From Bacteroidota bacterium (GTDB lineage Bacteria; Bacteroidota; Bacteroidia; JACCXN01), in assembly GCA_013696965.1 (NCBI GenBank), contig JACCXN010000035.1, positions 14,393 through 78,392 of the forward strand: DNA of 64,000 nucleotides. Reading direction: 5' to 3'. The notes under the pieces were generated by a model, which was not told the DNA's origin, did not search any database, and worked only from the letters and a program-made list of their open reading frames with translations. A program made the position numbers and the translations under genes. Position 1 is the first letter of the stretch, and every line of letters starts with the position of its first letter. Positions 16,351 through 50,435 of the stretch are shown here, in pieces.

Positions 16351-16391
16351 ACTTAATCGATTCGTGTATAAATTATTCTATTTGTTTTAAT

Positions 16392-17321: not shown

Positions 17322-17368
17322 AGTTTTTATATTTTTTTAAATTATTGACTGTTTTTATTTTATATTAA

Positions 17369-20017
17369 TTATTTTCTTAAATCAACAAAACCTTTCAGCA
17401 TTGTATCTCCATTATTTATAATTAATAGAACAAAATAGGTTCCTGTGGGAAGAACTTCTCCTTTGTTATTGGTCCCGTTCCACTCATTCATGTAGTTTTC
17501 CATAGTATAAACTTCATTTCCCCATCTGTTAAAAACAGTAAAGTTATTGTTCGGGAATTCTTCAATTCCTTTAATAATAAAACTATCGTTTTTACCACTG
17601 TTGTTAGGGGAAAAGCCGGTTGGCATTTCAAGCATTAATGGTTCGTTTAGTACTGCGCTTGCTGTTGTTGTACAACCATTTGCATCGGTTATAGAAACTT
17701 CATAGATACCAGCCTTTAAATTACTTATATCAGAGGTAATAGCGCCTGTTGACCATTTATAAGAATATGGTTGAGCCCCTCCTGATGGATCAATATTTAT
17801 AGCTCCATCACTTCCATTGTATGCACTAATATTAAAAGTATTTGTAAAAACTGATGCTGTTAAGTTAACCGATAAAACCTCCGGTTGATTTATAGTTATT
17901 TGTCGCGTTGTTTTGCAATTGTCTTTATCCCTTATTGTTACTTCATAAGTGCCTGCTGATAAATCTGTTAATTGAGAAGTAGTTGCGCCATTGCTCCATT
18001 CAAACTCGTAGGGAGCAGCTCCATTGCTTACATTGATTAAGGCAGATCCATTGTTTAAGCCATTGCAACTAACATTTTCTGATTCTGCGCTTAATTGCAT
18101 TGCAGATATTTCATCTAAAGATATCATGAGTTGTTGTTCACAATTATTGTTATCAATAACTGTAACATTATACAACCCGCTGGTTAAATCAATAATTTCA
18201 CTTTCACTGCTACCATTATTCCAGGAATAGGAGTAGGGAGCGGTTCCGCCATTGACATTCACCGAAATTTTGCCACTGTTTTCATTGCATTTTGCAGGTT
18301 CTATGGAAGCAACCACATATAAGTTTTCAGGTTCGGTTATGTTTACCGATAAAGTGATCTTACTTTCACAACCATTGGTATCAGAGACCAAAACATTGTA
18401 TGAGCCTTCTGAAAGGCCATTAACCGTTGAAGTAAATTGAACGGGTGAAGTACTCCATTCATAATTATAATTTCCACTTCCACCTGTAGCCACAACCGTT
18501 GCCTCACCATTTAAATCACCTTTGCATAAAACATTTAGCTGAGTACCGATGTTAGCAGTTAACGAATTAGAAGGTTCAGTTATATTTACAGTAATATCTA
18601 TGGGTGTAAGGCAACCATTTGTATCAAAAACTTCAAGGGTATAATTACCAGATGTTAAATTGGTTATATGAGCAGTATTTTGGACAGGCGAAGTATTCCA
18701 CACGTAAGTGTAATTTCCGCTTCCCCCTGTAGTAAGAACAGCAATTTCTCCAATAGAATCTCCTTTACATTTATTGTTTTCCTGTAAAACAAGAGAAACA
18801 TTTAATGAATCTTCGGGTTCTGTTATAGTTACTGAAAGTTTAAGTGGGGTAGAACATTCATTACTATCATTAATAATAACTTCGTAATTTCCTGCTGATA
18901 AACCTGTTGCTGTATTTGAAGTTTGAACAGGGGAAGTATTCCATGAATAGGAATAAACCCCAATACCTCCGGTAACCTGTACTGCAGCAGAACCATTGTT
19001 CTCGCCTGTACATAATACCTTTTCAATATTTATTATCTCTGCTTCAATAGGAGTTGTTGTTGTTACAGGAACAGTAATTAACAATGAATTGCAACCGTCC
19101 TCACTTAATCCATCTTTTATTTCAAGCGTGTAATTTCCTGCAGCGGTTGCAAAATAATCAGAAGATGTGGAAACAATTGTTCCATTTGAGTCTCTCCAGC
19201 TATATGAATAATTACCATCGCCACCATTTGCAAAGCTAGAAATCATAGTTCCAGAGTTTCCTGGACAAAGCGCTGCATTGCTAGGAGAAATGGTTGCCGA
19301 TAACCCAGGTAAAATATAAATCCTGAAAGTATCACAAAGTGTTTGAGTAAAACCGCATTTATCGGCAATGGGATAACCACAAATTGAATAATCTATATAT
19401 TCTGGGGCCAAAGAATCGGGTGAAAAATAAATAGTAGAACAAGCACTGGTACAGCTTAGATAATGATTGTATTCCCCTGCTTCTCCTGGGTAAATGGAGT
19501 TTAAAGTAATTGTAGAATAATCTAAACCAAATGTTTTAATTTCCCTATTGCAAATAACTCTTGAGTAGTCATCAGGCGGAAAAGTTGGGATTGCTATTGA
19601 ACTAATCTTATATTTATTAACATTTGTGCCAGGTTTGCAAAATGTAATAAAATGAGGGCCAACCCCACTTATACAAATTTCTTCTCCTATCATCACATCA
19701 GGGCCGCAATTAATTTGATAATAAAGTGCTCCAGATGGCATTGCGCCCTCTATTATTTCTACTTTCACGGCTACCGCAAGAGTGTCAAGAGTTATCATGA
19801 AAGAAGTGCAAAGTTTTGAACCGGAAGCAGAACAACACAATCCTTTTCTACTGTGAGAAGGAGAAATCCAAGTTCCTTCTGGGTTTCCTGTAAAATCTAC
19901 TTCAAAATAAGGAACGGTAGAATCACATTGGGAAAATGATTTTTCCGTAGTGAACAAAGTAAAAATAGCCAAATACAGTAACAGCTGAAATTTACCATAG
20001 TAATTAGTTTTCTTCAT
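17369..20017 (-). CDS. SprB-repeat cell-surface protein with a T9SS type B (gliding-motility-associated) C-terminal domain
   Basis: Cys-rich N-terminal domain, then six or more SprB-type repeats (CxGxxNGSAxVxVTGGxGxYSYSWNTSP). The C-terminal ~85 aa (FSPNNSGKNDSFIIKGIEEF...TGTYFVLLII...GFVDLRK) match the gliding-motility-associated C-terminal domain (type B sorting domain). Confidence 0.85.
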   Translation of the reverse strand: MKKTNYYGKFQLLLYLAIFTLFTTEKSFSQCDSTVPYFEVDFTGNPEGTWISPSHSRKGLCCSASGSKLCTSFMITLDTLAVAVKVEIIEGAMPSGALYYQINCGPDVMIGEEICISGVGPHFITFCKPGTNVNKYKISSIAIPTFPPDDYSRVICNREIKTFGLDYSTITLNSIYPGEAGEYNHYLSCTSACSTIYFSPDSLAPEYIDYSICGYPIADKCGFTQTLCDTFRIYILPGLSATISPSNAALCPGNSGTMISSFANGGDGNYSYSWRDSNGTIVSTSSDYFATAAGNYTLEIKDGLSEDGCNSLLITVPVTTTTPIEAEIINIEKVLCTGENNGSAAVQVTGGIGVYSYSWNTSPVQTSNTATGLSAGNYEVIINDSNECSTPLKLSVTITEPEDSLNVSLVLQENNKCKGDSIGEIAVLTTGGSGNYTYVWNTSPVQNTAHITNLTSGNYTLEVFDTNGCLTPIDITVNITEPSNSLTANIGTQLNVLCKGDLNGEATVVATGGSGNYNYEWSTSPVQFTSTVNGLSEGSYNVLVSDTNGCESKITLSVNITEPENLYVVASIEPAKCNENSGKISVNVNGGTAPYSYSWNNGSSESEIIDLTSGLYNVTVIDNNNCEQQLMISLDEISAMQLSAESENVSCNGLNNGSALINVSNGAAPYEFEWSNGATTSQLTDLSAGTYEVTIRDKDNCKTTRQITINQPEVLSVNLTASVFTNTFNISAYNGSDGAINIDPSGGAQPYSYKWSTGAITSDISNLKAGIYEVSITDANGCTTTASAVLNEPLMLEMPTGFSPNNSGKNDSFIIKGIEEFPNNNFTVFNRWGNEVYTMENYMNEWNGTNNKGEVLPTGTYFVLLIINNGDTMLKGFVDLRK

Positions 20018-32150: not shown

Positions 32151-32799
32151 AATGCTTCTGTATAAGATTAATTTGCAAAAGTACCAATTAGAATTGATTT
32201 TTGATGCTGCAAGATTATTTTATACAGAATATTTATTTTGATTTGCAAATGGGATTTACTAGATAAAGCCACCCAAAAATAGGAGAATCGGATAAGTATA
32301 TAACAAAATTATTTCTTGCATTATTTCTTAAGGATTTATCTATAGCATTTCTGCTACAATCTTTCCTCTCGGACCTTTTCTGCTAAAATATTTTTTTCAA
32401 AAAAACCTTTCTCCCAAAACCTTTTCTCATAGAATATCACCAAGAATCTTGATCAATCAATGATGATACTTTTAGCGTAATGCTTCATTAAACTTTATGC
32501 ATTTCGGTTTACCTTGAATTCGTGTTTCATATTTGATTTGAGCTTATTTTGATTTATATATACCGCTCCGTGCATCGCAATTACGCTTGATTTCGCTATA
32601 AACCACTGATATATCAACTCTGATTATTTTTGCAATAGAAGATTTTGATTCTCTTTCTTGTAACAATACCTCATTTTTACACCTTTGCTCTTGTGAAAGA
32701 TGTGACATTACAACTTTATTTTTGGCGATTTATCGGGGTAAAATAACTACTTTCCAAGAAACAGAGAGGGAAATTTTATAATTTTCCTCCTGTTTTTAT

Positions 32800-32926
32800 A
32801 TTTATTTTACCTCGCAATCTAAAAGTTGCATTTGTTAGTTGAATCTAATTATTTATTTTACCTCGCAATCTAAAAGTTGCATTTGTTAATTGAATCTAAT
32901 GTTACAATTGTTAATTGAATCTAATT
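32800..32926. repeat. 51-bp direct tandem repeat, two full copies plus a partial third, in the long intergenic region
   Basis: atttattttacctcgcaatctaaaagttgcatttgtta(g/a)ttgaatctaat occurs at 32800 and at 32851. The 3' part, ttgttaattgaatctaat, recurs a third time at 32909. Confidence 0.85.
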
Positions 32927-32943
32927 TTTAAAAAGAACGCCTG

Positions 32944-34587
32944 TCATTTTTCTTTTCTAATTTGCGCATGAATTTTTTCATAGACCATAAAACTTTCCGG
33001 GATTTTTTCCAATGAAAGGTCGGAGTTAGCAGGTCCATTGACAACTTTTCCATAACAGCTGAACCTGGAACCATGACAGGGACAATCAAAAGTTTTTTCA
33101 TCATTATTCCAATGCACAACACATTTCAGGTGCGGACAAATAGCATTGTAGGCATGAATTTCACCGAATTCGTCCTTGTAAACCGCTAATCGACTCATTC
33201 CATTTCGAATAATTGCACCTTCACCTTTCATAAGAAAGTCTTCGTTTTCAACTTTATCTCCTTTTAAAAAATCACCGTATTGTTTTATGACATTTGCATT
33301 TTCTTCAATAAACTCTTTTGTTGATTCTAAATGAATGCGAGAAGGATCGTATATTTTTGCCCAGTCGTTTTTTCTGCCATGAATAAGGTCAGTAATTAAA
33401 ATGCCGGCTATTGTTCCATGAGTCATTCCATTACCTGAGTCTCCAGTTACAATGTAAATATTTTTGCTATCCATTGGATTTCTTCCAATAAATGCCAAGT
33501 AGTCAACAGGTTCTATTACTTGCCCTGACCATTTATATATAATTTCCTCAATTGGAAATCTTTTTAAAGCCCATTTCTTAAGTCTTTGGAATCGGTCAAT
33601 TACTTGTTCCTCATCCTGCCCGGTTTTATGATCTTCACCACCTATGATTAGTAGATCATATTTATGATCATAGGACTGTAACCTAACGTAATGATATGGA
33701 TTTGTATGCCATTTTGAATTCTGCTCACCTGTATCCCACCATAATGCTTTTGGTAATGAATTTTTAGGAATTTTTGCACCTATTACATAAGTACGATAAG
33801 GAGCCTGCTTGGTGTGAATTGCCACTTTATTATTTACCGGGGAATTTGTTGCTACCACAATTTGTTTTGCCTTTACACGATAACCATGTGAAGTAACAAT
33901 ACCATTTTTATCAATTGTTTTGGCATGAGTTCCTGTAAATATCATTCCTCCAAATGAAATTATTACATCACACAATCCTTTAAGATACTTCATTGGATGG
34001 AATTGCGCCTGATCTTTAAATTTAAGACAAGGGCCTTGTTCTGTTGGTATTCCAGGAATATGGTTTATGATTTCAGTATTTATACCAGCTCTTTGCGTTG
34101 CTTCATATTCTTCAATTATGGATTCCTCCTTATCTGAGGAATGTAAAAATAAATATCCGTTAAGTCTTTCAAAATCACATGGAATTGCTTCTTCCAATAC
34201 AATTTTTTCTATCATTTCAATAGCAGCTGTATGACTTTGAGCTGCAAGCCGAGCTCCCTCATGTCCAAAAACCTTTTCAATTTCAAAATATCTGTCATCT
34301 AGGGCATTTACAATGTGTGCAGTAGTTCGTCCTGTTTCCCCACTTCCAATATAACCATCTTCAATAATAGCAACTGTTTTCCCTTCTTTAACTAACATAT
34401 ATGCAGTTGTTACACCAGCAATTCCTCCGCCAACTATTACCACATCTACACTTATGTCTTGTTGTAGTTCGGAATAACTAACTGGAACGGAAGAATTTAT
34501 CCAAAAAGTGTTGTTTTGTCCCGAAGTTATATCACCACTTGCATCAGATAAGTCAAAATTATTTTCATTGTTATTTATAATGGTCAT
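32944..34587 (-). CDS. FAD-dependent oxidoreductase fused to a C-terminal Rieske [2Fe-2S] domain
   Basis: 547 aa. The dinucleotide-binding motif VVIVGGGIAGVTTAY sits near the N-terminus. The C-terminal CPHLKCVVHW...CPCHGSRF has the Rieske CxH...CxxH ligand pattern. Confidence 0.85.
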   Translation of the reverse strand: MTIINNNENNFDLSDASGDITSGQNNTFWINSSVPVSYSELQQDISVDVVIVGGGIAGVTTAYMLVKEGKTVAIIEDGYIGSGETGRTTAHIVNALDDRYFEIEKVFGHEGARLAAQSHTAAIEMIEKIVLEEAIPCDFERLNGYLFLHSSDKEESIIEEYEATQRAGINTEIINHIPGIPTEQGPCLKFKDQAQFHPMKYLKGLCDVIISFGGMIFTGTHAKTIDKNGIVTSHGYRVKAKQIVVATNSPVNNKVAIHTKQAPYRTYVIGAKIPKNSLPKALWWDTGEQNSKWHTNPYHYVRLQSYDHKYDLLIIGGEDHKTGQDEEQVIDRFQRLKKWALKRFPIEEIIYKWSGQVIEPVDYLAFIGRNPMDSKNIYIVTGDSGNGMTHGTIAGILITDLIHGRKNDWAKIYDPSRIHLESTKEFIEENANVIKQYGDFLKGDKVENEDFLMKGEGAIIRNGMSRLAVYKDEFGEIHAYNAICPHLKCVVHWNNDEKTFDCPCHGSRFSCYGKVVNGPANSDLSLEKIPESFMVYEKIHAQIRKEK

Positions 34588-34602: not shown

Positions 34603-34884
34603 TTAGTGTGAGTTATTATTTTTTGAGTTATTCGGTTTGTTTGTATTGTTTTTTAAAATACTTTTAGTGGAATTAATGTTTGGGTTTCGTAAGTTGGGCT
34701 TAGGCATGTTTGGATTGTTTTTTCTTTTATTGTCCTCCCTAAAAAACAAATAAAGCGCAACTAATAAGGCTATTCCAAGTATGAAATAAATTGGCCATGT
34801 TGGTATAATTAAAAATACAACAACAACCCATGCAATTAGGATTATTATTATTAGAATCAGAAAAATTCTTCTTGCTGTTCCCAC
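34603..34884 (-). CDS. small membrane protein with two TM helices and an N/K/P-rich tail (hypothetical)
   Basis: 93 aa with two strongly hydrophobic helices, then NNPNMPKPNLRNPNINSTK. Ends 15 bp upstream of the oxidoreductase gene and is co-directional with it. Confidence 0.35.
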   Translation of the reverse strand: MGTARRIFLILIIIILIAWVVVVFLIIPTWPIYFILGIALLVALYLFFREDNKRKNNPNMPKPNLRNPNINSTKSILKNNTNKPNNSKNNNSH

Positions 34885-35079: not shown

Positions 35080-35445
35080 CTATTCCAGAAGGTTTTTTAC
35101 TGTTTTAATAAGCAATTGCGGAGAAAAAGGTTTTAACAGGCAGGCATCAGCCTGGGTAATAGTTGCTTGTAATATTTCTTTTTCCATTCCACTTAGAATA
35201 ATTACAGGAACAGGTTTTTTATACAAATGATTTTTAACGTGGTCAATTATTTCAAATCCTCCTGAGAAAGGAAGCATAATGTCTGTTATTACTAAATCAA
35301 AATCATCATCATTAAATTTATGGATGGCTTTTTTTACGGTTTGTACAGCACTTACTTTATAGTTTTCAAGTTCAAGAAAGCTTACTATTGATTGTCGAAT
35401 AAAAGGCTCATCCTCAATGACTAAAATATTTTTTATTTTCCCCAT
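35080..35445 (-). CDS. single-domain response regulator (receiver only)
   Basis: 121 aa. VIEDEP with the acidic pair. Phospho-acceptor Asp context LVITDIMLP. Conserved Lys at LLKPF. Confidence 0.85.
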   Translation of the reverse strand: MGKIKNILVIEDEPFIRQSIVSFLELENYKVSAVQTVKKAIHKFNDDDFDLVITDIMLPFSGGFEIIDHVKNHLYKKPVPVIILSGMEKEILQATITQADACLLKPFSPQLLIKTVKNLLE

Positions 35446-36131
35446 TAAATTATAATATTTACACTGGTTCCTAATATATAATGAGTGGCAGGTACATTAA
35501 TGTTTTGAATGGTGCGCAACATATAATAGACCGAAATACTGGTGTATTTATTAAATGAATAATCCATCCCTAATTTAAATCTTTGCTGAACCCATTTTGT
35601 ATCGGGAAATTCATCCATAGTATTAAAAAATTCAACTGCAGCGTATGGAGTCCATTGCTTATTTAATTCAACATTAGCCTGAATTTTATGTCTTAAAAAT
35701 TGTTGTGGAATCCTTCCATTTTCTGATGAAAACATATCCTTATAATTCATCTGGTATCTCAACCTATAACTTAATTCTATTGGCTTCCATTCATTTTTTA
35801 AAATCAAATCAGTTACTAACCTGTGTCTTGAGCTAAATGCAAAGTCTCTTTGAACATTTTGGCTGTTTCGGTAACTCATTCCTATTCTCAAATGCTTATT
35901 GAATTTATAGGCAATACCAACATCAATAAATCCTTTCTGAACTTCTGTGGCGTTGTTTCTAAGCCTTATTTCCTGCCTAATATTTATACTTGTTCCAGGG
36001 GCTATTTCTTTCTTTAATTTCAATCCAGACCAAATAAGAAAGTCTTGTGTGTTTTGACTTTTTACTTGATCTGGCCCCAACCAAAAAAACAAGAGCAAAA
36101 TGAGAATTATTACTGTTTCTTTTTTCATCAA
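35445..36131 (-). CDS. secreted beta-rich protein, DUF2490-like predicted outer-membrane protein
   Basis: 228 aa with a signal peptide. Alternating hydrophobic Y/F-rich strands (GIAYKF, IGMSYRN, LSYRLRYQMNY, GMDYSF, ISVYYML) typical of a small beta-barrel. The DUF2490 assignment is from memory. Its start overlaps the receiver gene's stop. Confidence 0.4.
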   Translation of the reverse strand: MMKKETVIILILLLFFWLGPDQVKSQNTQDFLIWSGLKLKKEIAPGTSINIRQEIRLRNNATEVQKGFIDVGIAYKFNKHLRIGMSYRNSQNVQRDFAFSSRHRLVTDLILKNEWKPIELSYRLRYQMNYKDMFSSENGRIPQQFLRHKIQANVELNKQWTPYAAVEFFNTMDEFPDTKWVQQRFKLGMDYSFNKYTSISVYYMLRTIQNINVPATHYILGTSVNIII

Positions 36132-36155
36132 TGTTTATGTTTTAAGTAACACATC

Positions 36156-36848
36156 TTAATTTTGTAAAGAAGATTGTGACGCTGCTTTTATACTTGTTTT
36201 TTCCACCAAAACTTTTTGCTGTTTAGTATCCAAATAATATATTTTTACACTTGCACTATCTTTCATGAAATTGATTTTACTAATTGAAATTCTGTGGATA
36301 TTAAGTCCAGTTCTTGCTTTTAAGTCTTCAATTAATAGGGCATGATTTTCTGGTTTTATCATTTCTATGTTTTCATACTGCACCTTTTGCGTATTCTCAT
36401 TTTTCATAAATAGATTCCCATCAAGAAAATAAGCGCAAGTCAATATAATTGAATTGATTAAAATAGTTTCGAAATATGTTCCTTTGGCAACAGCACTAAT
36501 TAGTCCTATTGCAATAACAATAAACAAATAGGTCATATCCTTTGCTGAAATATTGACAGTACGATATCTTAACAAAGAAAAAACAGCGAATAGTCCGAAG
36601 GCAGCTCCCATAGAAAGTTCAACCTTATTTAACAGATAGGTAATGATAAATATCACCACATTAAAAAGAAAGTAGGTGAAAAAATAATCTTTTTTCTTAT
36701 AAATGGGATAGTAAATTAGCCTGATGAGTATTAGTACAGAAAGGAAATTAATTGCTAACCGTAAAAAAAATTTTGCTCCTATTTTGTCAAATAGTTCAAA
36801 ATTTGGAAATACATCATTGGTTTGAGTAATAACTTCAAGAAGTAACAT
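36156..36848 (-). CDS. DUF4956 domain-containing membrane protein
   Basis: 230 aa. N-terminal four-TM region, then a soluble C-terminal domain. Overlaps the upstream VTC-domain gene by 14 nt. VTC-DUF4956 pairing is a recurring arrangement in Bacteroidota. Confidence 0.65.
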   Translation of the reverse strand: MLLLEVITQTNDVFPNFELFDKIGAKFFLRLAINFLSVLILIRLIYYPIYKKKDYFFTYFLFNVVIFIITYLLNKVELSMGAAFGLFAVFSLLRYRTVNISAKDMTYLFIVIAIGLISAVAKGTYFETILINSIILTCAYFLDGNLFMKNENTQKVQYENIEMIKPENHALLIEDLKARTGLNIHRISISKINFMKDSASVKIYYLDTKQQKVLVEKTSIKAASQSSLQN

Positions 36849-37632
36849 ACATTATTTTTTTTAAGGTTAATAATTTGGGTTTGAATAGGTTTTGTTTTAT
36901 TTTGGGGAATAATTGTGTAATTCCAAAACAATATTTGCTTATTGATATTTTTCTTATTTTGTTTTTATTCATTACTTGATGAAAAAATGATTTAATAGAA
37001 TTACCGTCTTGTTTCAATTCAGCAATTACCAGGAATTCAAATGTTTTTTCACCCTGCTCATTTTTCATTGTTAAATCAATATCAAGGGTTACTCTTTCAG
37101 TTAAATCGTTATTGACTAATGTAATGCGAGAATAGTTTATCCAGCAGACGGGCTTAAGACTTTCAGCCTTGATATTTGCAATAGATCGTAGAAATTTTTT
37201 AGCAGCTTTGCTTAAAGACTGTTCAATACTTTCTAGCTTAATTCTGTTTTTTATTGTTCTGGATTTATTGTTTTTAAACTTGATTTCAAAAAAATTCAGA
37301 TTTGACTCAACATATTTTCTACATCTTATTTTATACCGGTTTGATTTTCCATTGTGATGATTCAGGTATAAATCATATTTTTCCGTATCAAAATACAGTG
37401 TCTCGTAATTTGAGATTCTGTTATTCATAATTTCCAAAACTTTATAATTTTCTTTTAAATTTTGAAGAACTATTTTCAATTTATCCAAATGAAAAACAAA
37501 TTTTATATCAGTTCTATTCATTAACTTGACATTGTCCATTTCATTTAAATTTAAAGACCTGAAATCCTTTAATTCTTGCATAATTTGTTCAAAGAGGACT
37601 GAATCATTTGTCATAATCGAGCGGGTTTGCAT
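36835..37632 (-). CDS. VTC-domain (CYTH-like) protein, annotated in databases as polyphosphate polymerase domain-containing protein
   Basis: 265 aa. Block ...TDIKFVFHLDKL...ETLYFDTEKYDLYLNHHNGKSNRYKIRCRKYVESNLNFFEIKFK fits the triphosphate-tunnel VTC/CYTH beta-strand pattern (alternating K/R and E on strands, the YFDT motif). Confidence 0.7.
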   Translation of the reverse strand: MQTRSIMTNDSVLFEQIMQELKDFRSLNLNEMDNVKLMNRTDIKFVFHLDKLKIVLQNLKENYKVLEIMNNRISNYETLYFDTEKYDLYLNHHNGKSNRYKIRCRKYVESNLNFFEIKFKNNKSRTIKNRIKLESIEQSLSKAAKKFLRSIANIKAESLKPVCWINYSRITLVNNDLTERVTLDIDLTMKNEQGEKTFEFLVIAELKQDGNSIKSFFHQVMNKNKIRKISISKYCFGITQLFPKIKQNLFKPKLLTLKKIMYVTS

Positions 37633-37846
37633 ATAGTTAAGTGCCTTTTCATTATATACCTTTCCTTTTTCTAAAGCTCTATTTACATGGATTTATACTA
37701 ACTTTTTTACTTGCTTTAATTATTATCAAGCTTAAATTTATTAAATTTTACCAGCTATACTTTTCTTTTCAATTGTAGATGTTTTTTATCATCAATTGTA
37801 TATTTGCATTACCATTTCTTCCTTTTTAAAAGCATCAAAAGACATA

Positions 37847-38587
37847 CTAATTAAAAATAACTAAGTTGTTTAATTGTAAAATTTGATCTCTACTATTAAT
37901 TTCTGCTTTATGCTTTACCATAATAGTTCCTGATGGTGATAATTGGGCAGAATCTTTAGAATAGGTATAAATTTCATATTTGCCTTTTCTTAGGTTTTTG
38001 AATTCAAATGATCCATCGTAACTTGTTCTTATTCTCTCGCTGTAGGATACTTCATTTCCGCATTTTAAATATACAGTCTCATCCTGAGCACCATACTCTC
38101 CTTTTAGTTCAGTGAAACTTGCATTGTAATTTTTCACCCAAATTTTTCCTCTAATTGAAGCGCTTCCGCCTTTATTTGCTGGCTGATAAATTATTAAATC
38201 ATTTATTTCAACATTTTGCTTTTTATCGCTTATTTCGAAATTTCGTAAAACTGGGGTTTTAGGTGAAGATGAAACTTTGGAAGTATCCATCCCATAGGCA
38301 AAAATTTTATAATTTCCTTTTCTTAAGTATTTGAATTCAAATGAACCATCATGATTTGTCCTTATATCATCACCAAAGCCATCTTGCTCATTATCATAAA
38401 CCAAAAAGACCCTTTCTTCAGGTTCAACATCCTCTTGAGAAACAATAAATTCGGGGGAATGGTAATTTCCTGCATACAATTTACCTTTTACAATTGCTTT
38501 TCCACCTGTTCCTGCCTCTTTTTTGCAGGATGTGAAAATTATGAGGGCAATAGAAAATAGTATAAATAGTGTAAATTTTTTTTTCAT
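37847..38587 (-). CDS. lipoprotein with two tandem carboxypeptidase-regulatory-like beta-sandwich repeats
   Basis: Lipobox LIIFTSC. Two internal repeats: IRTNHDGSFEFKYLRKGNYKIFAYG and IRTSYDGSFEFKNLRKGKYEIYTYS. Confidence 0.5.
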   Translation of the reverse strand: MKKKFTLFILFSIALIIFTSCKKEAGTGGKAIVKGKLYAGNYHSPEFIVSQEDVEPEERVFLVYDNEQDGFGDDIRTNHDGSFEFKYLRKGNYKIFAYGMDTSKVSSSPKTPVLRNFEISDKKQNVEINDLIIYQPANKGGSASIRGKIWVKNYNASFTELKGEYGAQDETVYLKCGNEVSYSERIRTSYDGSFEFKNLRKGKYEIYTYSKDSAQLSPSGTIMVKHKAEINSRDQILQLNNLVIFN

Positions 38588-38869
38588 TGTTATTATTTTA
38601 TAAACAATTAATTAAATAGTTTAAATCAGGAATAATTATCAAAAGACCTTGCCATAATAATTAAATATAAAAGTGCTGGAAGATGGCTTGTTAAGCTATT
38701 GGTTAACAAGCAATTTTTATATATTGATTTATTAATCTTGGCAATTAATGAAATTCAATGAGAAAAATTTTCTACATTATGTGAAATATATTCAGGTGAG
38801 TGCGAAAATAATATGGCCATCTTGAAAAAATATTTTCAAGACGGCCAAAATTTAAAAAATCAAGGAATT

Positions 38870-39544
38870 TTATATATCCCTTTGCGCATTATTTTCGCTG
38901 TTTCCTTCTGTGTCAAAGGCATCTCCTTCCAAAACTCCTTTTTCACTATCCTTTAATTGTTCTTCAATACTCTCCACTTTTTCAAGTTGGGTTCTTAGTC
39001 TGGGTAGTGTATTCAGAGCAAATTCTCTAATTTCAGGAATATCAGTTTCACGGGCAAGACTTTCAAAATCATTTATTTTGTCCTGATAGTTACTTTTTAT
39101 TTCATCTACATATTCCTTGTCGAAATCAATGCCTTCATTATCAGTTACACTGTTTATTTTGTCTTGGTGATCATCTGACATAGTTCCAGGTAATACGACT
39201 GGTTCTTTTTGAGCAAGGGCCTCGAGTTCACTTTGAATTTCACGGTGTTCTGTTGCAATATCCTTTGCAAATTGCTGAACTTCAGGAGTAACAGCTTTTT
39301 CTTCTGCTATCCTTGATAATTCCATATTCATCATGTTCATACTTGCTGTTTCAGTTAGTATTTCAGCTGTCTTATCATCCATTATTCTTTCCTCTGTTCT
39401 TTCTTGTGCTTTTTCTACCGGGTCCTCATTTTTTGTTCCCGTTTCACATGCTATATTTAGCATTAAACCAAAAGCGCATAGTCCTATAAAAAATTTTGTT
39501 TTCATTTTTTTAAGTTTTAATGTTTGTGGTTTTATCTTGTCCAA
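38870..39544 (-). CDS. DUF4142 domain-containing lipoprotein; the start is probably at MKTKFF (about nt 39505)
   Basis: Lipobox LNIAC. Helical domain with the paired pattern ...MNMMNMELSRIAEEKAVTPEVQQFAKDIATEHREIQSELEALAQ... and ...LPRLRTQLEKV, typical of DUF4142. Confidence 0.6.
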   Translation of the reverse strand: MDKIKPQTLKLKKMKTKFFIGLCAFGLMLNIACETGTKNEDPVEKAQERTEERIMDDKTAEILTETASMNMMNMELSRIAEEKAVTPEVQQFAKDIATEHREIQSELEALAQKEPVVLPGTMSDDHQDKINSVTDNEGIDFDKEYVDEIKSNYQDKINDFESLARETDIPEIREFALNTLPRLRTQLEKVESIEEQLKDSEKGVLEGDAFDTEGNSENNAQRDI

Positions 39545-41085: not shown

Positions 41086-41418
41086 ATGGGTGCAACAAAG
41101 ACCGAACATTTTACCGACAAACAAAATTCCATTGCGACACTTATCAAAGCTCTCGGACATCCTGCAAGGATTGCTATCGTAGAGTATTTAATGAAAGTGG
41201 ATGCTTGTATTTGTGGCGACATTGTAAACGAACTTCCTCTTTCACAGCCGACAGTTTCGCAGCACTTGAAAGAACTCAAGACGGCTGGACTGATTAAAGG
41301 AAGTGTCGAGGGCAATTCAATTTGTTACTGCATAGACGAGAATGCAATCGGTAAACTTCAAGACTACTTCGCAAACATTTCAGACAAATTAGAAAAAAAG
41401 AAAGATAATTGTTGCTAA
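41086..41418 (+). CDS. arsR: ArsR/SmtB family metalloregulator
   Basis: 110 aa. HTH LGHPARIAIVEYL... and the metal-site CICGD. The region is visibly GC-richer than its flanks. Confidence 0.9.
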   Translation: MGATKTEHFTDKQNSIATLIKALGHPARIAIVEYLMKVDACICGDIVNELPLSQPTVSQHLKELKTAGLIKGSVEGNSICYCIDENAIGKLQDYFANISDKLEKKKDNCC

Positions 41419-41434
41419 TTTAAAATTAAACAAA

Positions 41435-41905
41435 ATGAAACTATCTCAATTCAAAAAACATCTTGCCACTATTTCGGCTGTAAACTTTGTTCAGCCCAAC
41501 GGGACTTTTGTTCCCCGACACTTCCACGTCACCGAAGCGGGTTTAACAACCAAACATTTCATTGACTGCGGTGGGACAGTGAGAACTGAAAAGACCATTA
41601 ACTTTCAAGTTTGGGTTGCACAAGACTTTAATCACCGACTTGAACCTAACAAACTTCAAAAAATCATTTCATTATCTGAAAACCTTTTCGGCAACGAAGA
41701 CTTGGAAGTTGAAGTGGAATATCAAACGGAAACCATTGGCAGGTATGGCTTAGACACAAACGGAGAAAACTTTATGCTAACTGCAAAAGCAACCGACTGT
41801 TTGGCAAAAGACAACTGCGGAGTTCCCGAAGCAAAACATAAATTAGAATTATCAGAACTGCCAACCGAAAAATCCTGTTGCTCTCCTGGCGGAGGGTGCT
41901 GTTAA
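41435..41905 (+). CDS. ars-operon-associated protein of unknown function (DUF6428-like) with a Cys-rich C-terminus
   Basis: 156 aa. Lies between arsR and arsC and ends ...KSCCSPGGGCC. The DUF6428 name is from memory. Confidence 0.5.
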   Translation: MKLSQFKKHLATISAVNFVQPNGTFVPRHFHVTEAGLTTKHFIDCGGTVRTEKTINFQVWVAQDFNHRLEPNKLQKIISLSENLFGNEDLEVEVEYQTETIGRYGLDTNGENFMLTAKATDCLAKDNCGVPEAKHKLELSELPTEKSCCSPGGGCC

Positions 41906-42043
41906 TATATGAAAGCGTTTATCATCAAATATAAAAAGCCAATCATCATCACAACTTCCATAACAGTTTTGCAACTCATTTTCGGCTTTGACCCAAAGTT
42001 TTGCATCATCAACATTGTTTGGCTGTTTGTATAAAATTAAACT

Positions 42044-42473
42044 ATGACACAGACAAAAGTGTTATTTCTCTGCATACACAATTCGGCACGAAGCCAAATG
42101 GCAGAAGCGTATCTGAAAAAATTCGGTGGCGACAAGTTCTTAGTAGAAAGTGCAGGACTTGAAGCGGGTAAACTCAATCCACTAGCAGTAGAAGTTTTCG
42201 AAAGAGGACGGAATTGACATTTCAAACAACCAGACAAAAGACGTGTTCGACTTTTTCAAAGAAGGGCGACTGTATCAATATGTGGTGACCGTTTGCGATG
42301 AAGCAAGTGCAGCTCGTTGCCCAATCTTTCCCGGACTACACAAAAAAATTAATTGGAGTTTTGCAGACCCTTCCGCATTGACAGGCACACACGAAGAAAA
42401 ACTTGCAGCGACAAGAGTCGTTCGTGACAAAATTAAAAATGCGGTTCAGACTTTCATAAAAGAGTTAAATTAA
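42044..42473 (+). pseudogene. arsC: arsenate reductase (LMW-PTP / thioredoxin-coupled type) interrupted by a +1 frameshift in a T-run
   Basis: Frame 1 (42044..42217) gives [24 protein letters not shown]...[14 protein letters not shown], with the CX5R P-loop. Frame +1 continues as ...[45 protein letters not shown]... through to 42473. The join is in gttttcg at 42194-42200, consistent with one extra T. Confidence 0.8.
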
Positions 42474-43027: not shown

Positions 43028-44914
43028 TTGAAAACATACTATTTCAGCAGATTTGAAAATCGAAAACCTTACCCTGAAATTAAGAACAATAAATACAGGA
43101 CGTTTTTCTTTCAATTTTTTGCAATTCTAACAATAGGATTTGGTTTGACTTATTTGAATTGGAGATGGCAATACTCCCTTAATTATGATGCGCTTTGGTT
43201 TGCATTACCACTTGTTGTTGCCGAAACCTTGAGTTTTGTTGGTACTTGTCTTATTATTTATAATATGTGGTCAAACAAAGATCCAATAAAGCATGCTCCT
43301 GTTCATTTTTTATCTGAAATTGAAGACTTACATGGCCGTTTAGATAGACCTGTTAAAATTGATGTACATATAGCAACTTATAATGAGGAAGTTGAAATTG
43401 TCCGATACAGCATCAGAGATGCCAAAAATATGGTTTATCCTTTTGCTGATGTGCCTATTAACATTTATATACTTGATGATGGAAGACGTGATGGCAGGAA
43501 TGCTAATCAGGAAAACATGAAAAAAGTTGCAGAAGAGGAGGGGGCCGGATACATAATAAGAGATAATAATGAGGGTTATAAAGCAGGTAATTTAAAGAAT
43601 GGACTTGAAAAGACAAATGGAGATATTTTCGTTATTCTTGATGCTGATACACGTCCATTTCCTGATTTTTTGGTGAATACCATAGGATATTTCCGGAATA
43701 AAAAAGTTGCATGGGTACAAACCCCACAGTGGTTTTATGATACCACTCCTGGAAAAAATATTAGTACTGTACTTGCTCAAAAATTTGGAAAAACAGGAGC
43801 ATTTTTAGGCAAGGTGTCTGATAAATTATTTGGTAAAATTAAAACAGGAGAAGATATTTTTGGGAATGATCCTCGAATGTTTTATGATGTTTTACTTAGA
43901 AGAAGAAATAATTACAATGCTGCATTTTGTTGTGGTGCAGGTTCTATCCATAGACGAGAGGCAGTTATGAGCCTTGCCGTAAGCGGATATGGTGAGGAGG
44001 TAAATCAAGGGATTAAAAATGTTCTGAAAAAAAACAAAATTATTGCAAAACAGGAATACAGAGAACATAAAAAATCTTTAATTATAGAAAAACATCTTAT
44101 CCCTTTTAAGTTCCATGCTTCAGAGGATATTTATACCTCAATGATGTTGCATGCAGACCGTAAAAATGATTGGCAAAGTATTCAGCATCATAAGGTAGAA
44201 TGTAAAATGTTGTCTCCTCAGGATATCGATACAAGTGTGAAACAAAGAACCAGGTATGCTGCAGGGTCACTGGATATTGCTTTTAAAGATAATCCTTTAG
44301 TTTTTAAAGGATTAACGATTTGGCAACGATTGGCATATTTTTCTACAATTTGGTCATATATTTCTCCAACATGGATTATTGTTTTTTTATTGAGTCCCAT
44401 AGTGTTTTTTTTCACCCAAGCATTACCTGTAGCTGCCTATAGTTTTGATTTTTTTAAATTTTTTATACCTTTTCAAATTCTCAATACAATTTCTATGTCA
44501 ATTGCATGCTGGGGCATTAATAATTCCAGAGGCGATCAGTATTATATATCTTGTTTTTGGTTAATGTTACTTGCTTTATATTCAGCAATTCGTGGAGAAA
44601 ATGTGAAATTTAACGTAACCCCAAAAATAAGGCAAGGAGCAAATCAATATATAAAGCATATATGGCCTCATATTGCTATAATTTTGCTCACTTTGCTTGG
44701 CATTTTTTATAATGTATTTCTTTTGGGTATTGACGCTCATCCTACAGCTTCTGGCTTTGTTTCCAATGCTTTTTGGGGAATGTTTAATATCTACAATTTA
44801 AGCATAATGATAAGAGCGGCTTTTTGGACTGAAAAAGAAGCCGAATTGGAAAGCGGAACAATTTTAGAAAACAAAATTGAAAATTCAGTTGTTTCTAATG
44901 TCTCTATGGATTGA
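43028..44914 (+). CDS. processive family-2 glycosyltransferase, cellulose-synthase-like, lacking a PilZ domain
   Basis: 628 aa. Two N-terminal TM helices, then a GT-A domain with IYILDDGRRD and VILDADTRP (D, DxD), SEDIYTSMMLH (TED-like) and QRTRYAAG (a QxxRW variant), then four or more C-terminal TM helices. Confidence 0.85.
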   Translation: MKTYYFSRFENRKPYPEIKNNKYRTFFFQFFAILTIGFGLTYLNWRWQYSLNYDALWFALPLVVAETLSFVGTCLIIYNMWSNKDPIKHAPVHFLSEIEDLHGRLDRPVKIDVHIATYNEEVEIVRYSIRDAKNMVYPFADVPINIYILDDGRRDGRNANQENMKKVAEEEGAGYIIRDNNEGYKAGNLKNGLEKTNGDIFVILDADTRPFPDFLVNTIGYFRNKKVAWVQTPQWFYDTTPGKNISTVLAQKFGKTGAFLGKVSDKLFGKIKTGEDIFGNDPRMFYDVLLRRRNNYNAAFCCGAGSIHRREAVMSLAVSGYGEEVNQGIKNVLKKNKIIAKQEYREHKKSLIIEKHLIPFKFHASEDIYTSMMLHADRKNDWQSIQHHKVECKMLSPQDIDTSVKQRTRYAAGSLDIAFKDNPLVFKGLTIWQRLAYFSTIWSYISPTWIIVFLLSPIVFFFTQALPVAAYSFDFFKFFIPFQILNTISMSIACWGINNSRGDQYYISCFWLMLLALYSAIRGENVKFNVTPKIRQGANQYIKHIWPHIAIILLTLLGIFYNVFLLGIDAHPTASGFVSNAFWGMFNIYNLSIMIRAAFWTEKEAELESGTILENKIENSVVSNVSMD

Positions 44915-44942
44915 TTTTGTTACTTAATTTAAAAATTATACT

Positions 44943-46292
44943 ATGTCTGGGGAAAGTCAGGAAAAGCAAAATCAGATGAAGTTCCTTTTTAAACCCTTGT
45001 TTTTTATTTTTGCACTACTTACTGTAACTTATATAGTTCTTTATGTAGAAAAATTGAAACCTTCCGATTTAAAGCCTTTCGGAGATTTATTTGTAAAGGA
45101 TGATGTAATACTTAAATCTCAAAGATATCCTATTAAATCTGCCTCTGGTTACCTTACCAGAGAAGAATTTATTTACGCGAATATTGCATGGAAATATTTT
45201 GAAAATAATTACGATCAAAAGACAGGTTTTGTAAATGGAAAAGATACCAGCTCAATATTTACTATTAAAGATCTTACCAGTTATTTGATGGGTATGTTCT
45301 GCGCCCTTGAAATTGGAATTGTGGATTCAACAGAAGTGGATAGTAGGATGAATAAACTGTTTATATCTCTTGATAAAATACCACTTTATGAAAATAAACT
45401 TCCAAATAAAAAATATAACACAGGATCATTAAAAATGCTTGATGAAAATGGAAATACCTCTGAAAATGGATTTGGTTGGTCGGCTCTTGATATAGGAAGG
45501 TTTTTTAATTTTGTAAATAAAGTAAATCTACAATATCCACAATACCAGCCAAAAATCAGAAAAATTATTAAACGGTGGAAAATGCATGAAATGATTGAAA
45601 ATGGAAACCTTAAAGGAATGGTTTTCCAGAGCAACAAAAGAAAATATAAATTAATCCAGGAGGGTCGCTTAGGATATGAGGAGTATTGTGGCAAAGCTTT
45701 ATATAAATCAGGCTTTGATGTTACCGAAGCCATTAGCTACAGGGACTTTATAAAGTTCATTGACATTTATGGATACAGGATAGCAGCAGACACCAGGGAA
45801 GTAAGAAAAAAAAATTCACACAACTATGTACTTAGTGATCCCTATTATTTAGATGGATTAGAAAACGGCTGGGACATAAATTCCCGGGAACTTGCATTTA
45901 GGGTTTTTATGGTGCAAAAAGCAAGATATATTGATACAGGAATTTTAACAGCAACAGGAGAAGATTATACAGATAATACTGCTAATTATGTTTATAACTC
46001 TATTTATGCGGATTTTAGAACCTGGACCTGCTATGATGAAATGGGTAAGAAAAGGAACGATTTAAAAATGCTTAGCACAAAAACTTCTTTTGCATGGTAT
46101 GTTTTATATGAGGATGAATATGCAAATTTATTGTTTAACAATGTTAAGGATTTATATGATCCTCAGAGAGGATGGTATTCGGGAAGGTACGAAGTTTCGG
46201 GAAAAATAAACAAATCCATTTCTGCTTCTACCAATGCAATAGTATTGGAAGCATTAAATTATAAAATGAACGGAACTATTATTCAGTTTTAA
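44943..46292 (+). CDS. DUF3131-like membrane-anchored protein with a predicted (alpha/alpha)6 glycosidase-like fold
   Basis: 449 aa. N-terminal TM anchor (LFFIFALLTVTYIVL). Remainder W/Y/G-rich with a GFGWSALDIGRF block. Lies 28 bp downstream of the GT2 gene. The DUF3131 assignment and its association with beta-1,2-glucan enzymes are from memory. Confidence 0.5.
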   Translation: MSGESQEKQNQMKFLFKPLFFIFALLTVTYIVLYVEKLKPSDLKPFGDLFVKDDVILKSQRYPIKSASGYLTREEFIYANIAWKYFENNYDQKTGFVNGKDTSSIFTIKDLTSYLMGMFCALEIGIVDSTEVDSRMNKLFISLDKIPLYENKLPNKKYNTGSLKMLDENGNTSENGFGWSALDIGRFFNFVNKVNLQYPQYQPKIRKIIKRWKMHEMIENGNLKGMVFQSNKRKYKLIQEGRLGYEEYCGKALYKSGFDVTEAISYRDFIKFIDIYGYRIAADTREVRKKNSHNYVLSDPYYLDGLENGWDINSRELAFRVFMVQKARYIDTGILTATGEDYTDNTANYVYNSIYADFRTWTCYDEMGKKRNDLKMLSTKTSFAWYVLYEDEYANLLFNNVKDLYDPQRGWYSGRYEVSGKINKSISASTNAIVLEALNYKMNGTIIQF

Positions 46293-46364
46293 ATAAAAGT
46301 AAATGTTTTTGCACATTTTGTGCAAAGGCTTTCTCAAATGTAATTTAATTCAAGCATTTTTTAT

Positions 46365-46775
46365 TTGAAAAAAAATGGCCGGATTTTTCATTCTCTTATT
46401 GAGATCAATGAAAACACAATGAAAAAAAGCCTGATTATTTTCACTATACTTATCCCATTAATTGTAATGGTAATTGCATTTAATTGTAGAAATAAAAAAC
46501 CTGATTCGATCAAGAATATAAATCCATTTAAATATGCTGCTCTAAGTGTAGAAACCTTTCATATAAAGGATAAAGGATGGGGATTTGATATTTATGTAAA
46601 TGGCAAAGCATTTATTCATCATGAAAAACCCCAGTTAAGTTCTCTTGAGGGATATGCAAATGAACAAGATGCTGTAAAAGTTTCAAAACTTGTAATAAGC
46701 AAAATCAGATCAAACAAGTTACCACCTGTTATTTCCTTTTATGAATTAGATAGTTTAGACATTAGGTATAAATAA
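46365..46775 (+). CDS. DUF4907-like small membrane-anchored protein; probable start at MKKSLIIF (about nt 46419)
   Basis: Single TM anchor, then ...HIKDKGWGFDIYVNGKAFIHHEKPQ...GYANEQDAVKVSKLVISKI, which resembles the conserved GWGYDIY...G...FATKEDAEKVGKLVI core of DUF4907. Confidence 0.5.
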   Translation: MKKNGRIFHSLIEINENTMKKSLIIFTILIPLIVMVIAFNCRNKKPDSIKNINPFKYAALSVETFHIKDKGWGFDIYVNGKAFIHHEKPQLSSLEGYANEQDAVKVSKLVISKIRSNKLPPVISFYELDSLDIRYK

Positions 46776-49004: not shown

Positions 49005-50435
49005 ATGAAAACTAAGAAAAATAAGCTTACTGATTCTTTTCAGTTGCTAAATCCAACTGAGCGCCTAATAAATAAGAAAAAGGCAGAAATGATGGGAAAG
49101 GCCAATAGAGGCAATCTGGATATGCTTATCCATGAATTGCATGTATATCAAGTTGAACTTGAAATTCAGAATGAGGAATTGAAAAGGGCAAAAAAAGAGA
49201 TCGAAATTTCTAGAAATAAATATGCCGATTTATATGATTTTTCTCCTATTGGATATTTTACTTTTGATCAGGAAGGGTTTATTCAGGAGGTAAATTTGGC
49301 TGCCAGTAAAATTCTTAGAATAAACAGAGATTTTTTAATTCATAAAATGTTTCACATTTACATTGTTCCTGAATTTTGGGATGATTTCAATGATTTTTTA
49401 AAAGAAACCATGCAAAGTGATGTAAAGCAGACTTGTGAAATCCAGATGCTAAATAAAGATGGTGAGGTTTTCCATGCTCAATTAGAAGGAATTAAAATTA
49501 GTGGAAATGGAAATAATCCCGATTGCTTCAGGGCTGCACTTATCGATATTACGGATAGAAAAATAGCTGAGAAAGCATTGAAAAAAAACACCCATGAATT
49601 GCTATTTAATAAAAAACTACTTGAACGAAAATCCCTTGAACTTGCTCAGGTATTTATTCAACTCGCAAAGTCTGAAAGGGATTTAAGGGAATTGAATGTT
49701 AACAAGGATAAGTTTTTTGCAATCATAGCCCATGATTTAAGAAATCCCTTCTCAGTTATGCTTGGTCTAACAAATATCCTTGTCAATGATTATGAACAAA
49801 TGGATAAAAGGCAGGTATTAGAGATTCATCAAAAATTAGATTTAACAGTAAACAGAGTTTATTCATTGTTGAATAATTTATTAAAATGGTCAGTTATTCA
49901 GTTTGGAAAAATAGATTATAAGCCAGAAGAAATAAATCTTAATGAATTAATAGTAGAAAGTTTAAAATTACTGCAACATTATGCTGAGAACAAGCAAATA
50001 ACAGTTAAAACCACGGTTGATGAAAATATTGCTGTAGTCGCAGATAAGAATATGTTGGAATCCGTGATTCAAAATTTAATAACAAATGCCATAAAATTCA
50101 CAGCCATTGGAGGTGACGTTCGAATTGAGGCAACTGAGAAAGAAAAATTCACTAAAATAAGTGTTTTGGATACAGGGGAGGGCCTGGATAAAAAAACCTT
50201 AATTAATTTATTTAGAATAGATAAGAAAAACAGTACCAATGGCACTTCAAATGAATCAGGTACAGGTTTAGGTTTGATTTTATGCAAAGAGCTAATAGAA
50301 ATACAGGGTGGAAAGATTTGGGCAGAAAGTGAACCAGGAAAGGGTGGAAAGTTTTCTTTCACATTGCCCAAGAGTGATGAAATACCCAAAATAACTAAGG
50401 AGTTAAAGGCTAAAATAAACAAAAAAACAATTTGA
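49005..50435 (+). CDS. cytoplasmic PAS-domain sensor histidine kinase
   Basis: 476 aa with no TM segment. Coiled-coil. PAS block (YDFSPIGYFTFDQEGFIQEVNLAASKIL). HisKA H-box FFAIIAHDLRNP. HATPase_c N, G1 and G2 boxes (LITNAIKFT, DTGEGL, GTGLGL). Confidence 0.85.
   Translation: MKTKKNKLTDSFQLLNPTERLINKKKAEMMGKANRGNLDMLIHELHVYQVELEIQNEELKRAKKEIEISRNKYADLYDFSPIGYFTFDQEGFIQEVNLAASKILRINRDFLIHKMFHIYIVPEFWDDFNDFLKETMQSDVKQTCEIQMLNKDGEVFHAQLEGIKISGNGNNPDCFRAALIDITDRKIAEKALKKNTHELLFNKKLLERKSLELAQVFIQLAKSERDLRELNVNKDKFFAIIAHDLRNPFSVMLGLTNILVNDYEQMDKRQVLEIHQKLDLTVNRVYSLLNNLLKWSVIQFGKIDYKPEEINLNELIVESLKLLQHYAENKQITVKTTVDENIAVVADKNMLESVIQNLITNAIKFTAIGGDVRIEATEKEKFTKISVLDTGEGLDKKTLINLFRIDKKNSTNGTSNESGTGLGLILCKELIEIQGGKIWAESEPGKGGKFSFTLPKSDEIPKITKELKAKINKKTI

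Follow-up and report, generated by a model that had tools for sequence, protein, structure and literature searches.

The 64,000-nucleotide stretch analysed here, called the window below (contig JACCXN010000035.1 of the Bacteroidota bacterium assembly GCA_013696965.1, positions 14,393 to 78,392), carries a minus-strand cluster of four genes that encode a VTC-domain protein, a DUF4956 membrane protein, a DUF2490 putative outer-membrane beta-barrel and a single-domain response-regulator receiver (Table 1; coordinates are those of the window). The core of this cluster is read here, tentatively and with somewhat less than even confidence, as a split counterpart, in bacteria, of the VTC polyphosphate synthase-translocase of eukaryotes, one that spans the cell envelope, with the receiver as a regulatory add-on of one sub-clade. 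This reading draws on the domain identities, a Vtc4-like fold with Vtc4-like residues, a conserved gene order, the basic character of DUF2490 and the restricted distribution of the receiver. The initial annotation of the region had proposed a signalling module, a label that misdescribes what would mainly be an envelope machine.

The VTC protein resembles Vtc4

The VTC open reading frame (ORF) matches the Pfam family VTC (PF09359) over its full length (1–235 of 235; E 7.6e-32, 111.2 bits against a cutoff of 23), and this is the sole Pfam domain in the protein, which starts at M7 in the public record and is then 259 aa long. The AlphaFold2 (AF2) model has an eight-stranded beta-tunnel fold (predicted local distance difference test, pLDDT, 85.6; predicted template modelling score, pTM, 0.84). 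When this model was compared with the PDB using Foldseek, the top 12 matches were all yeast VTC-complex entries (E 3.5e-12 to 3.7e-10), the best being Vtc4 (3g3r, 8i6v; E 3.5e-12, TM-score ~0.6), with the hydrolase-type tunnel enzymes YgiF (2e-8) and SaTTM (1.5e-7) ranking below them.

The residues R40, D42 and K44 (motif RTDxK), R99, K101, R103 and R105 are invariant in an alignment of 29 VTC sequences, as are E116, K118, K120, R169, R180, E205, K207, S232, K233 and Y234, with Y167 nearly so (90% or more of the homologues). A HMMER profile search of PDB sequences, with alignment to 3g3q (chain numbering +185), paired K44, R103, R105 and E116 with Vtc4 K200, R264, R266 and E279, and K118, Y167, R169 and R180 with Vtc4 K281, Y359, R361 and R373. 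Judged by position only, E205-x-K207 and S232-K233-Y234 are plausible equivalents of the C-terminal ligands of Vtc4. The paired residues reportedly line the polymerase tunnel in the 2009 Vtc4 study by Hothorn et al., in which K200 is said to be a polymerase-specific residue. The initial annotation had made its proposal depend on the basic tunnel residues, and these are kept on alignment to Vtc4; together with Vtc4 as the top structural match, the conserved tunnel residues argue for a Vtc4-type enzyme.

No transmembrane (TM) segment or signal peptide is predicted in the VTC protein, as against five TM helices in DUF4956, which points to a cytosolic enzyme and a membrane-borne partner. VTC homologues carry a mean net charge of +14.9. 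At E ≤ 1e-3 the family spans 5,923 bacterial 50%-identity clusters, and the top 150 of their representatives are all stand-alone proteins of ~230–320 aa.

A different assignment, which we consider rather unlikely, would make the VTC protein a triphosphatase or a polyphosphate-binding sensor that works with an MgtC-like DUF4956 in phosphate/ATP or cation homeostasis, the barrel then being a phosphate-type anion uptake porin. Hydrolases make up most of the tunnel enzymes characterised so far in bacteria and archaea, and two of them, YgiF and SaTTM, are also significant structural matches of the model, but each hydrolase-type entry has an E-value at least two orders of magnitude poorer than any Vtc4, Vtc2 or Vtc3 entry. 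Strand 1 of the VTC protein keeps an acidic residue where Vtc4 has Thr (RTDTK, with D42 invariant), whereas K44, the equivalent of the reportedly polymerase-specific K200, is invariant as well. A DUF4956 homologue has been called MgtC-like with an ACT domain (PMC12345266), yet no Pfam-level similarity to MgtC is found in DUF4956. The basic charge of the barrel is as compatible with phosphate uptake as with export, but the neighbouring genes encode secreted matrix and surface proteins and not phosphate transport or Pho functions.

The membrane partner and the putative barrel

To place the cluster among its relatives, species-representative genomes were scanned, which returned at least 586 relatives; 80 loci, almost all from Bacteroidota, were kept (individual loci are cited by label, L003 and so on). 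Locus ORFs were annotated by comparison with the proteins of the window and with others identified in the loci themselves, and denominators are loci with enough flank. The DUF4956 gene directly follows the VTC gene in 67 of 72 loci, and the two genes overlap in 90% of 73 related loci (median -20 nt), where start codons are a longest-ORF choice and overlaps may be somewhat overestimated. Adjacency and overlap together argue that the two proteins are coupled. The initial annotation had called the pair recurrent and uncharacterised, which agrees with these counts and with published mentions that are comparative or genetic.

DUF4956 matches PF16316 (E 1.5e-51, 174.9 bits). Its AF2 model, which is of low confidence (pLDDT 60), has the five TM helices and a C-terminal beta-alpha-beta-beta (ACT-like) domain, and hydropathy analysis agrees with a multi-pass membrane domain followed by a small C-terminal domain. 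Hydropathy and the positive-inside loops KKK (50–52) and RYRT...K (94–103) suggest that the C-terminal domain is cytoplasmic. The core GAAFGLFAVFS-LRYRT-I-KDM is invariant, and in the first TM helix R30 is invariant and R43 nearly so. ACT-domain matches in Foldseek were non-significant (E > 0.07 over ~60 residues of a low-confidence model), and no ACT match was found by Pfam in 28 DUF4956 members at E ≤ 10. Two identities were considered and rejected at sequence level, namely a homologue of Vtc1/DUF202, for which the PDB profile search gave a chance match to SecG (E 0.15), and a homologue of MgtC, for which Pfam at E ≤ 10 gave DUF4956 alone across the 28 members. The Streptococcus intermedius homologue was described in a 2025 study as an MgtC-like TM protein with an ACT domain, and mutants in the DUF4956 or CotH homologue of that species showed lower Pel levels and aggregation (PMC12345266).

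DUF2490 matches PF10677 (E 3e-25, 89.5 bits) and is the beta-barrel-like protein of the initial annotation. It also gives sub-threshold Pfam matches to KdgM, porin and FadL, and TCDB enters the family among its putative porins as 1.B.81, with no assigned function (PMC4827864). The protein has an N-terminal hydrophobic signal-like segment and ~10–12 amphipathic beta segments. Net charge is +12.6 ± 4.0 (sd) across 59 cluster-linked homologues, well above that of the other cluster proteins it was compared with, the lipoprotein (+1.4) and DUF4956 (a mean of +1.9 over its homologues), and basic residues alternate in the conserved patterns R-H-R, RxRxQ and RxK (Arg/Lys/His). As far as sequence can indicate, this fits a predicted barrel suited to conducting a polyanion. 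DUF2490 is found nearby in 46 of 55 loci and directly after DUF4956 in 43 of 70, with a DUF4956-DUF2490 spacing of ≤ 30 nt in 91% of 44 related loci. Its presence in most loci, its charge and its conserved alternating Arg/Lys residues suggest a role as conduit. The joining of a beta-barrel protein to the VTC-DUF4956 pair, presented earlier as peculiar to this locus, is thus common in Bacteroidota, and the same DUF4956-DUF2490 pairing occurs in Bacteroides thetaiotaomicron as BT3498-99 (PMC10434189).

Conserved neighbours and the link with CotH

The conserved Bacteroidota core consists of a lipoprotein, a YD/MORN-like repeat protein, VTC, DUF4956 and DUF2490. The gene of the lipoprotein, which is CarboxypepD_reg-like and usually of a single domain (~135 aa), precedes VTC in 54 of 67 loci, and that of the secreted repeat protein (160–200 aa) lies directly upstream of VTC, often abutting it, in 62 of 72 (within L004–L082) and also in L090. 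The window departs from this pattern in that no remnant of the repeat gene was found in the 214-nt gap upstream of VTC (37633–37846), and the gene is likewise gone in L003. In both of these the upstream lipoprotein has two domains (246 aa vs ~135 aa), which in the window are CarboxypepD_reg/transthyretin-like beta-sandwiches with sub- or near-threshold Pfam matches to SdrD_B, fn3_3 and CarboxypepD_reg. A repeat protein of ~550 aa sorted by the type IX secretion system (T9SS) accompanies 18 of 64 loci, and in 12 of 44 (~27%) there is, no more than 10 kb away, a gene for CotH, which carries Lamin-tail and T9SS sorting domains. That most of the conserved neighbours are secreted or envelope proteins, and that they include CotH with a T9SS sorting domain, points to a role at the envelope or cell surface.

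The VTC-DUF4956(-CotH) set is already known from comparative work on Gram-positive pel loci (10.1101/768473; PMC12345266). The presence in these loci of cotH, a polyphosphate polymerase gene and DUF4956, along with the S. intermedius mutant phenotypes, lends support to a reading in terms of export and matrix. No published description of the DUF2490 extension or of the receiver-bearing variant was found in our literature search.

It had been claimed for this locus that the pair usually sits with CotH, that CotH is missing here, and that the receiver stands in its stead. CotH does associate with the pair, but in only about 27% of the Bacteroidota loci. It is undetectable throughout the window (phmmer on ORFs and tblastn), and tblastn found no remnant in the 790-bp gap at 32151–32943, the CotH site in relatives. 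The idea of a replacement is misleading, as the nearest receiver-bearing relatives carry both genes; in L083, L084 and L085 the CotH gene is convergent and ~2.3 kb from the receiver gene.

These associations leave room for a further explanation, unlikely in our view, that the module supplies an extracytoplasmic phosphoryl donor (polyphosphate or a nucleotide/triphosphate) for secreted CotH-family kinases acting on surface proteins or exopolysaccharide, the CotH gene having moved elsewhere in the genome in the lineage of the window. The T9SS-sorted CotH genes within 10 kb, their closeness to the receiver gene in the three loci just named, the contiguity of CotH, VTC and DUF4956 in Clostridium, Streptococcus and Bifidobacterium (PMC2879425; 10.1101/768473) and the similar phenotypes of CotH and DUF4956 mutants in S. 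intermedius (PMC12345266) would all agree with this. Around three quarters of the Bacteroidota loci are nevertheless without CotH within 10 kb, as is the entire window. We also know of no kinase that uses polyphosphate outside the cell.

The receiver belongs to one sub-clade

The receiver matches Response_reg (PF00072; E 7.5e-22, 78 bits) and has no output domain. Its best NCBIfam matches (PhoB and others) are far under their cutoffs and reflect generic receiver similarity; NCBIfam holds no model for VTC, DUF4956 or DUF2490. The phosphorylation pocket is kept (E11/D12, D55, S85, K105-P106), and among cluster-linked receivers D12, D55 and K105 are invariant and S/T85 is retained. The position of the CheY Y106 switch residue (residue 102) is occupied by Cys in 9 of 10 cluster-linked receivers, whereas the Hpt-linked outgroup has Tyr or Phe.

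The subfamily is rare, with 10 database matches at E ≤ 1e-10, and every homologue examined at ≥ 42% identity sits in a VTC cluster of one sub-clade. Receivers of 56–90% identity with readable context come directly after DUF2490 (L083, L086, L090); in L084 and L085 the contig end is too near to show the upstream genes, and the downstream genes are common with the sub-clade. The receiver gene lies within ~5 nt of DUF2490 in L003, L083, L086 and L090. Locus L091 holds an orthologue (42% identity) that shares the signature motifs and directly follows DUF4956, in quite different flanks, and this orthologue, being without DUF2490 and in differing surroundings, argues for a functional link between receiver and VTC instead of inherited synteny. 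The intact phospho-acceptor residues and the restriction of the subfamily to VTC clusters, L091 included, likewise suggest a dedicated receiver. Co-conservation of the four genes, on which the initial annotation had made its proposal depend, holds within the sub-clade (window, L003, L083, L086, L090, L091) and fails across the family, where 76 of 80 species-level loci have no receiver. A receiver gene directly follows DUF2490 in 2 of 60 loci with enough flank (L003, the nearest relative, and L072). The phosphorelay input proposed for the cluster is in turn plausible for the receiver-bearing sub-clade only, and it has no linked kinase or Hpt gene.

A single kinase was found in the window, an orphan of PAS-HisKA-HATPase architecture (49005–50435, plus strand, 476 aa) that has no response regulator next to it; it is a candidate partner for the receiver, with nothing linking the two. 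The next-nearest receivers (~40% identity) occur in Hpt-receiver-HEAT_2-GT2(chitin-synthase-like)-sulfatase clusters (L087/L088, 6612–12087, and the locus of P0248), and HEAT-repeat and glycosyltransferase genes also stand beside VTC-DUF4956-CotH in Clostridium perfringens NELoc-2 (PMC2879425). The pairing of HEAT and GT2 in both settings hints at a shared exopolymer theme. Two-component genes have been placed beside the VTC cluster independently in L072 (an OmpR-type regulator and a kinase) and L064 (a hybrid kinase). A different and minimal receiver-VTC pairing was observed in L044 (9586–10777), where a 143-aa receiver-only gene has a 22-nt overlap with the start of a lone VTC gene and no DUF4956 or DUF2490 is nearby.

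It is quite improbable that the receiver is a passenger, co-transcribed through an accidental insertion and serving a phosphorelay that has nothing to do with VTC (it might be a phosphate sink of the PAS kinase at 49005–50435), for while the gene is absent from most loci, has no cognate kinase in the operon and belongs to a pattern of two-component adjacency (four lineages in 80 loci: L003, L044, L064, L072) that is mildly above a rough estimated expectation of ~1–2, every member of this rare subfamily examined at ≥ 42% identity, L091 included, lies in a VTC cluster, the spacing from DUF2490 is tight (the 1-nt overlap in the window and ~5 nt in four relatives) and the clade has signature residues of its own, such as the Cys at the switch position.

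Organisation of the locus

The four minus-strand ORFs of the initial annotation are all present where it placed them, each with a strong Pfam match. Of the three junctions that it described, the 14-nt VTC/DUF4956 overlap (ATGTTACTTCTTGA) and the 1-nt DUF2490/receiver overlap (TAATG) are confirmed by the sequence. The 0-nt DUF4956/DUF2490 junction is not, and gives way to a gap of 24–27 nt; the ATG abutting the DUF4956 stop opens a dead-end frame of 9 codons, and DUF2490 starts either with an ATG at 36128 (27-nt gap), as it also does in the public gene call, or with a TTG at 36131 (24-nt gap).

Table 1. Features of the VTC cluster and its immediate surroundings in the window
Feature	Coordinates	Strand	Description
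VTC-domain protein	36835..37632	-	265 aa; predicted Vtc4-type triphosphate-tunnel polyphosphate polymerase, cytosolic
DUF4956 inner-membrane protein	36156..36848	-	230 aa; proposed VTC membrane partner/conduit
DUF2490 putative outer-membrane beta-barrel	35445..36128	-	227 aa; proposed conduit for anionic product
Single-domain response-regulator receiver	35080..35445	-	121 aa; sub-clade-specific cluster member
Lipoprotein, lipobox FTSC	37847..38587	-	246 aa; conserved upstream accessory gene
Small membrane protein, Pro/Asn-rich tail	34603..34884	-	93 aa; just 3' of receiver gene
FAD oxidoreductase (DAO) fused to Rieske domain	32944..34587	-	Pfam DAO + Rieske; functional membership uncertain
Terminator-like hairpin	38814..38847	-	15-bp stem and T-rich tail; between DUF4142 gene and lipoprotein gene

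No terminator-like hairpins were found inside the four-gene cluster, and the hairpin at 38847–38814 is likely the upstream boundary of the transcription unit, which would place the lipoprotein gene, 214 nt from VTC, on the inner side of it. Promoter scans were uninformative, a sigma-70-type search giving fewer sites than in shuffles and the Bacteroidetes TTTG...TAnnTTTG motif showing no enrichment and no occurrence near the cluster. A DUF4142 protein (38870–39544, minus strand) recurs near the VTC cluster in L090, L091, L030 and L078, whose flanks are otherwise different; in the window its gene is cut off from the cluster by the strong hairpin.

Downstream of the receiver, the small membrane protein, for which no Pfam family scored above threshold, has 50–57% identity to small ORFs of L083, L084 and L085 (tblastn, E 1e-8 to 5e-10), and L090 has a small ORF in the same position. 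The DAO-Rieske gene is found at the same position in L003, L083, L084, L085 and L090 and is replaced by other genes in L091.

Comparison with known systems

The eukaryotic VTC complex (yeast Vtc4/Vtc3/Vtc1; 3g3r, 8i6v, 7ytj) shares with the cluster the Pfam family, fold and tunnel residues of its catalytic domain, the combination of a cytosolic tunnel enzyme with a membrane component, and the attachment of a signal-receiving module to the enzyme system. The cluster differs in that its enzyme is a stand-alone protein of 265 aa not fused to TM helices, its membrane partner, DUF4956, has no sequence relationship to Vtc1/DUF202, and SPX is missing, the regulatory input being a two-component receiver where one is present. 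An outer-membrane barrel is added, and the product would end up in the periplasm or at the cell surface instead of in the vacuole lumen.

With the CotH/polyphosphate-polymerase/DUF4956 set of Gram-positive pel loci (Whitfield et al., 10.1101/768473), exemplified by S. intermedius SIR_1592-1594 (PMC12345266) and C. perfringens NELoc-2 (PMC2879425), the cluster has in common the VTC-DUF4956 pair in the same order and the link to secreted CotH (here in relatives) and to cell-surface or matrix functions. The window, however, is without CotH, pel genes and DUF4832, and adds DUF2490 as a Gram-negative outer-membrane component, the CarboxypepD_reg-like lipoprotein and the receiver.

Two more distant likenesses concern single proteins. 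The CheY, DivK and CpdR type of single-domain response regulator is similarly a lone receiver with an intact D-D-S/T-K set that presumably acts through protein-protein contact; the receiver here differs from it in being without linked kinase, Hpt or chemotaxis genes, in having Cys for the aromatic switch residue and in being encoded inside an envelope/biosynthetic operon. Pseudomonas OprP and OprO are phosphate- and diphosphate-selective porins, and DUF2490 is comparable to them, by analogy, in that it is a putative barrel of the outer membrane whose many conserved basic residues may form an anion path. Unlike in that pair, the barrel is much smaller (~200 aa mature), and no sequence relation to them was detected, Pfam giving DUF2490 and the weak KdgM, porin and FadL matches.

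Proposed mechanism and points against it

Under the interpretation of the core as a split VTC counterpart, we infer polymerase activity, translocation, a direction of export and a receiver target as follows. The cytosolic VTC protein would polymerise phosphate from ATP in its triphosphate tunnel, and DUF4956, translationally coupled to it, would take up the chain and carry it through the inner membrane. At the outer membrane the strongly basic DUF2490 barrel would then let the chain pass or anchor it there, so that the chain at the surface might serve surface or matrix proteins, namely the lipoprotein and, in relatives, the YD/MORN-like repeat protein and the T9SS-secreted CotH kinases. In the sub-clade, the receiver, phosphorylated by an unlinked kinase, would most likely bind VTC or the cytoplasmic domain of DUF4956, and this binding would switch synthesis on or off in a way functionally comparable to the SPX-domain gating of eukaryotic VTC. 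A complete envelope-spanning VTC analogue, with polyphosphate threaded via a DUF4956 channel and an arginine-lined DUF2490 to the surface and with the CheY-like receiver in the SPX role, seems improbable.

A number of observations weigh against the split-counterpart interpretation. For the enzyme, the local alignment to 3g3q stopped short of the Vtc4 C-terminal ligands E426, S457 and K458, and the top 150 representatives include no VTC-DUF4956 fusion proteins. The DUF4956 model is poor, and the protein has no detectable similarity to Vtc1/DUF202 channel subunits (PDB profile, Pfam E ≤ 10). The barrel is not obligatory, as L091 lacks DUF2490 beside its VTC-DUF4956 pair and Gram-positive versions are necessarily without it. 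Given its absence from 76 of the 80 loci, the receiver is a sub-clade add-on, and the VTC machine does without it across the family. The ± 10 kb around the cluster contain neither a kinase gene nor an Hpt gene, the orphan PAS kinase being 11 kb from VTC and 13.5 kb from the receiver on the opposite strand. Finally, our search for functional work on bacterial VTC, DUF4956 and DUF2490 found no enzymatic or transport assay and only comparative or genetic mentions (10.1101/768473; PMC12345266; PMC2879425).

The wider window and significance

Further from the cluster, two SprB-repeat T9SS cargo proteins, one with Por_Secre_tail and one with CHU_C, flank a PorP/SprF gene (16392–17321) on the minus strand at 11722–20017, which shows that the T9SS that the CotH of relatives would use is present in this genome. 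On the plus strand at 43028–46775, ~5–9 kb from the VTC cluster, genes for a GT2 glycosyltransferase (628 aa), DUF3131 and DUF4907 look like a glucan-type synthesis and turnover set. The plus-strand genes at 41086–42473 encode an ArsR-type regulator, DUF6428 and a low-molecular-weight phosphatase/ArsC-like fragment (a 76-aa ORF; 57 aa in the public call), and could be an arsenic-resistance operon in decay.

In reviews, VTC figures as the polyphosphate polymerase of eukaryotes and PPK as that of bacteria (for example PMC12526157). Despite this view of VTC as eukaryotic, the bacterial family, with its 5,923 clusters, keeps the alignable catalytic residues of Vtc4. If the cluster does make and export polyphosphate, it would constitute a second, membrane-coupled bacterial polyphosphate pathway and would provide a means by which polyphosphate gets to the cell surface or outside the cell. 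To our knowledge no export route for this bacterial polyphosphate has been described. The same activity might account for the association of secreted CotH kinases and exopolysaccharide loci with VTC-DUF4956 genes, and, should the envelope-spanning VTC analogue be true, it would be the first defined bacterial polyphosphate secretion route and a PPK-independent one. The receiver-bearing sub-clade offers a handle on its regulation, and B. thetaiotaomicron, with BT3498-99 and the VTC gene beside them, a tractable organism in which to study it.

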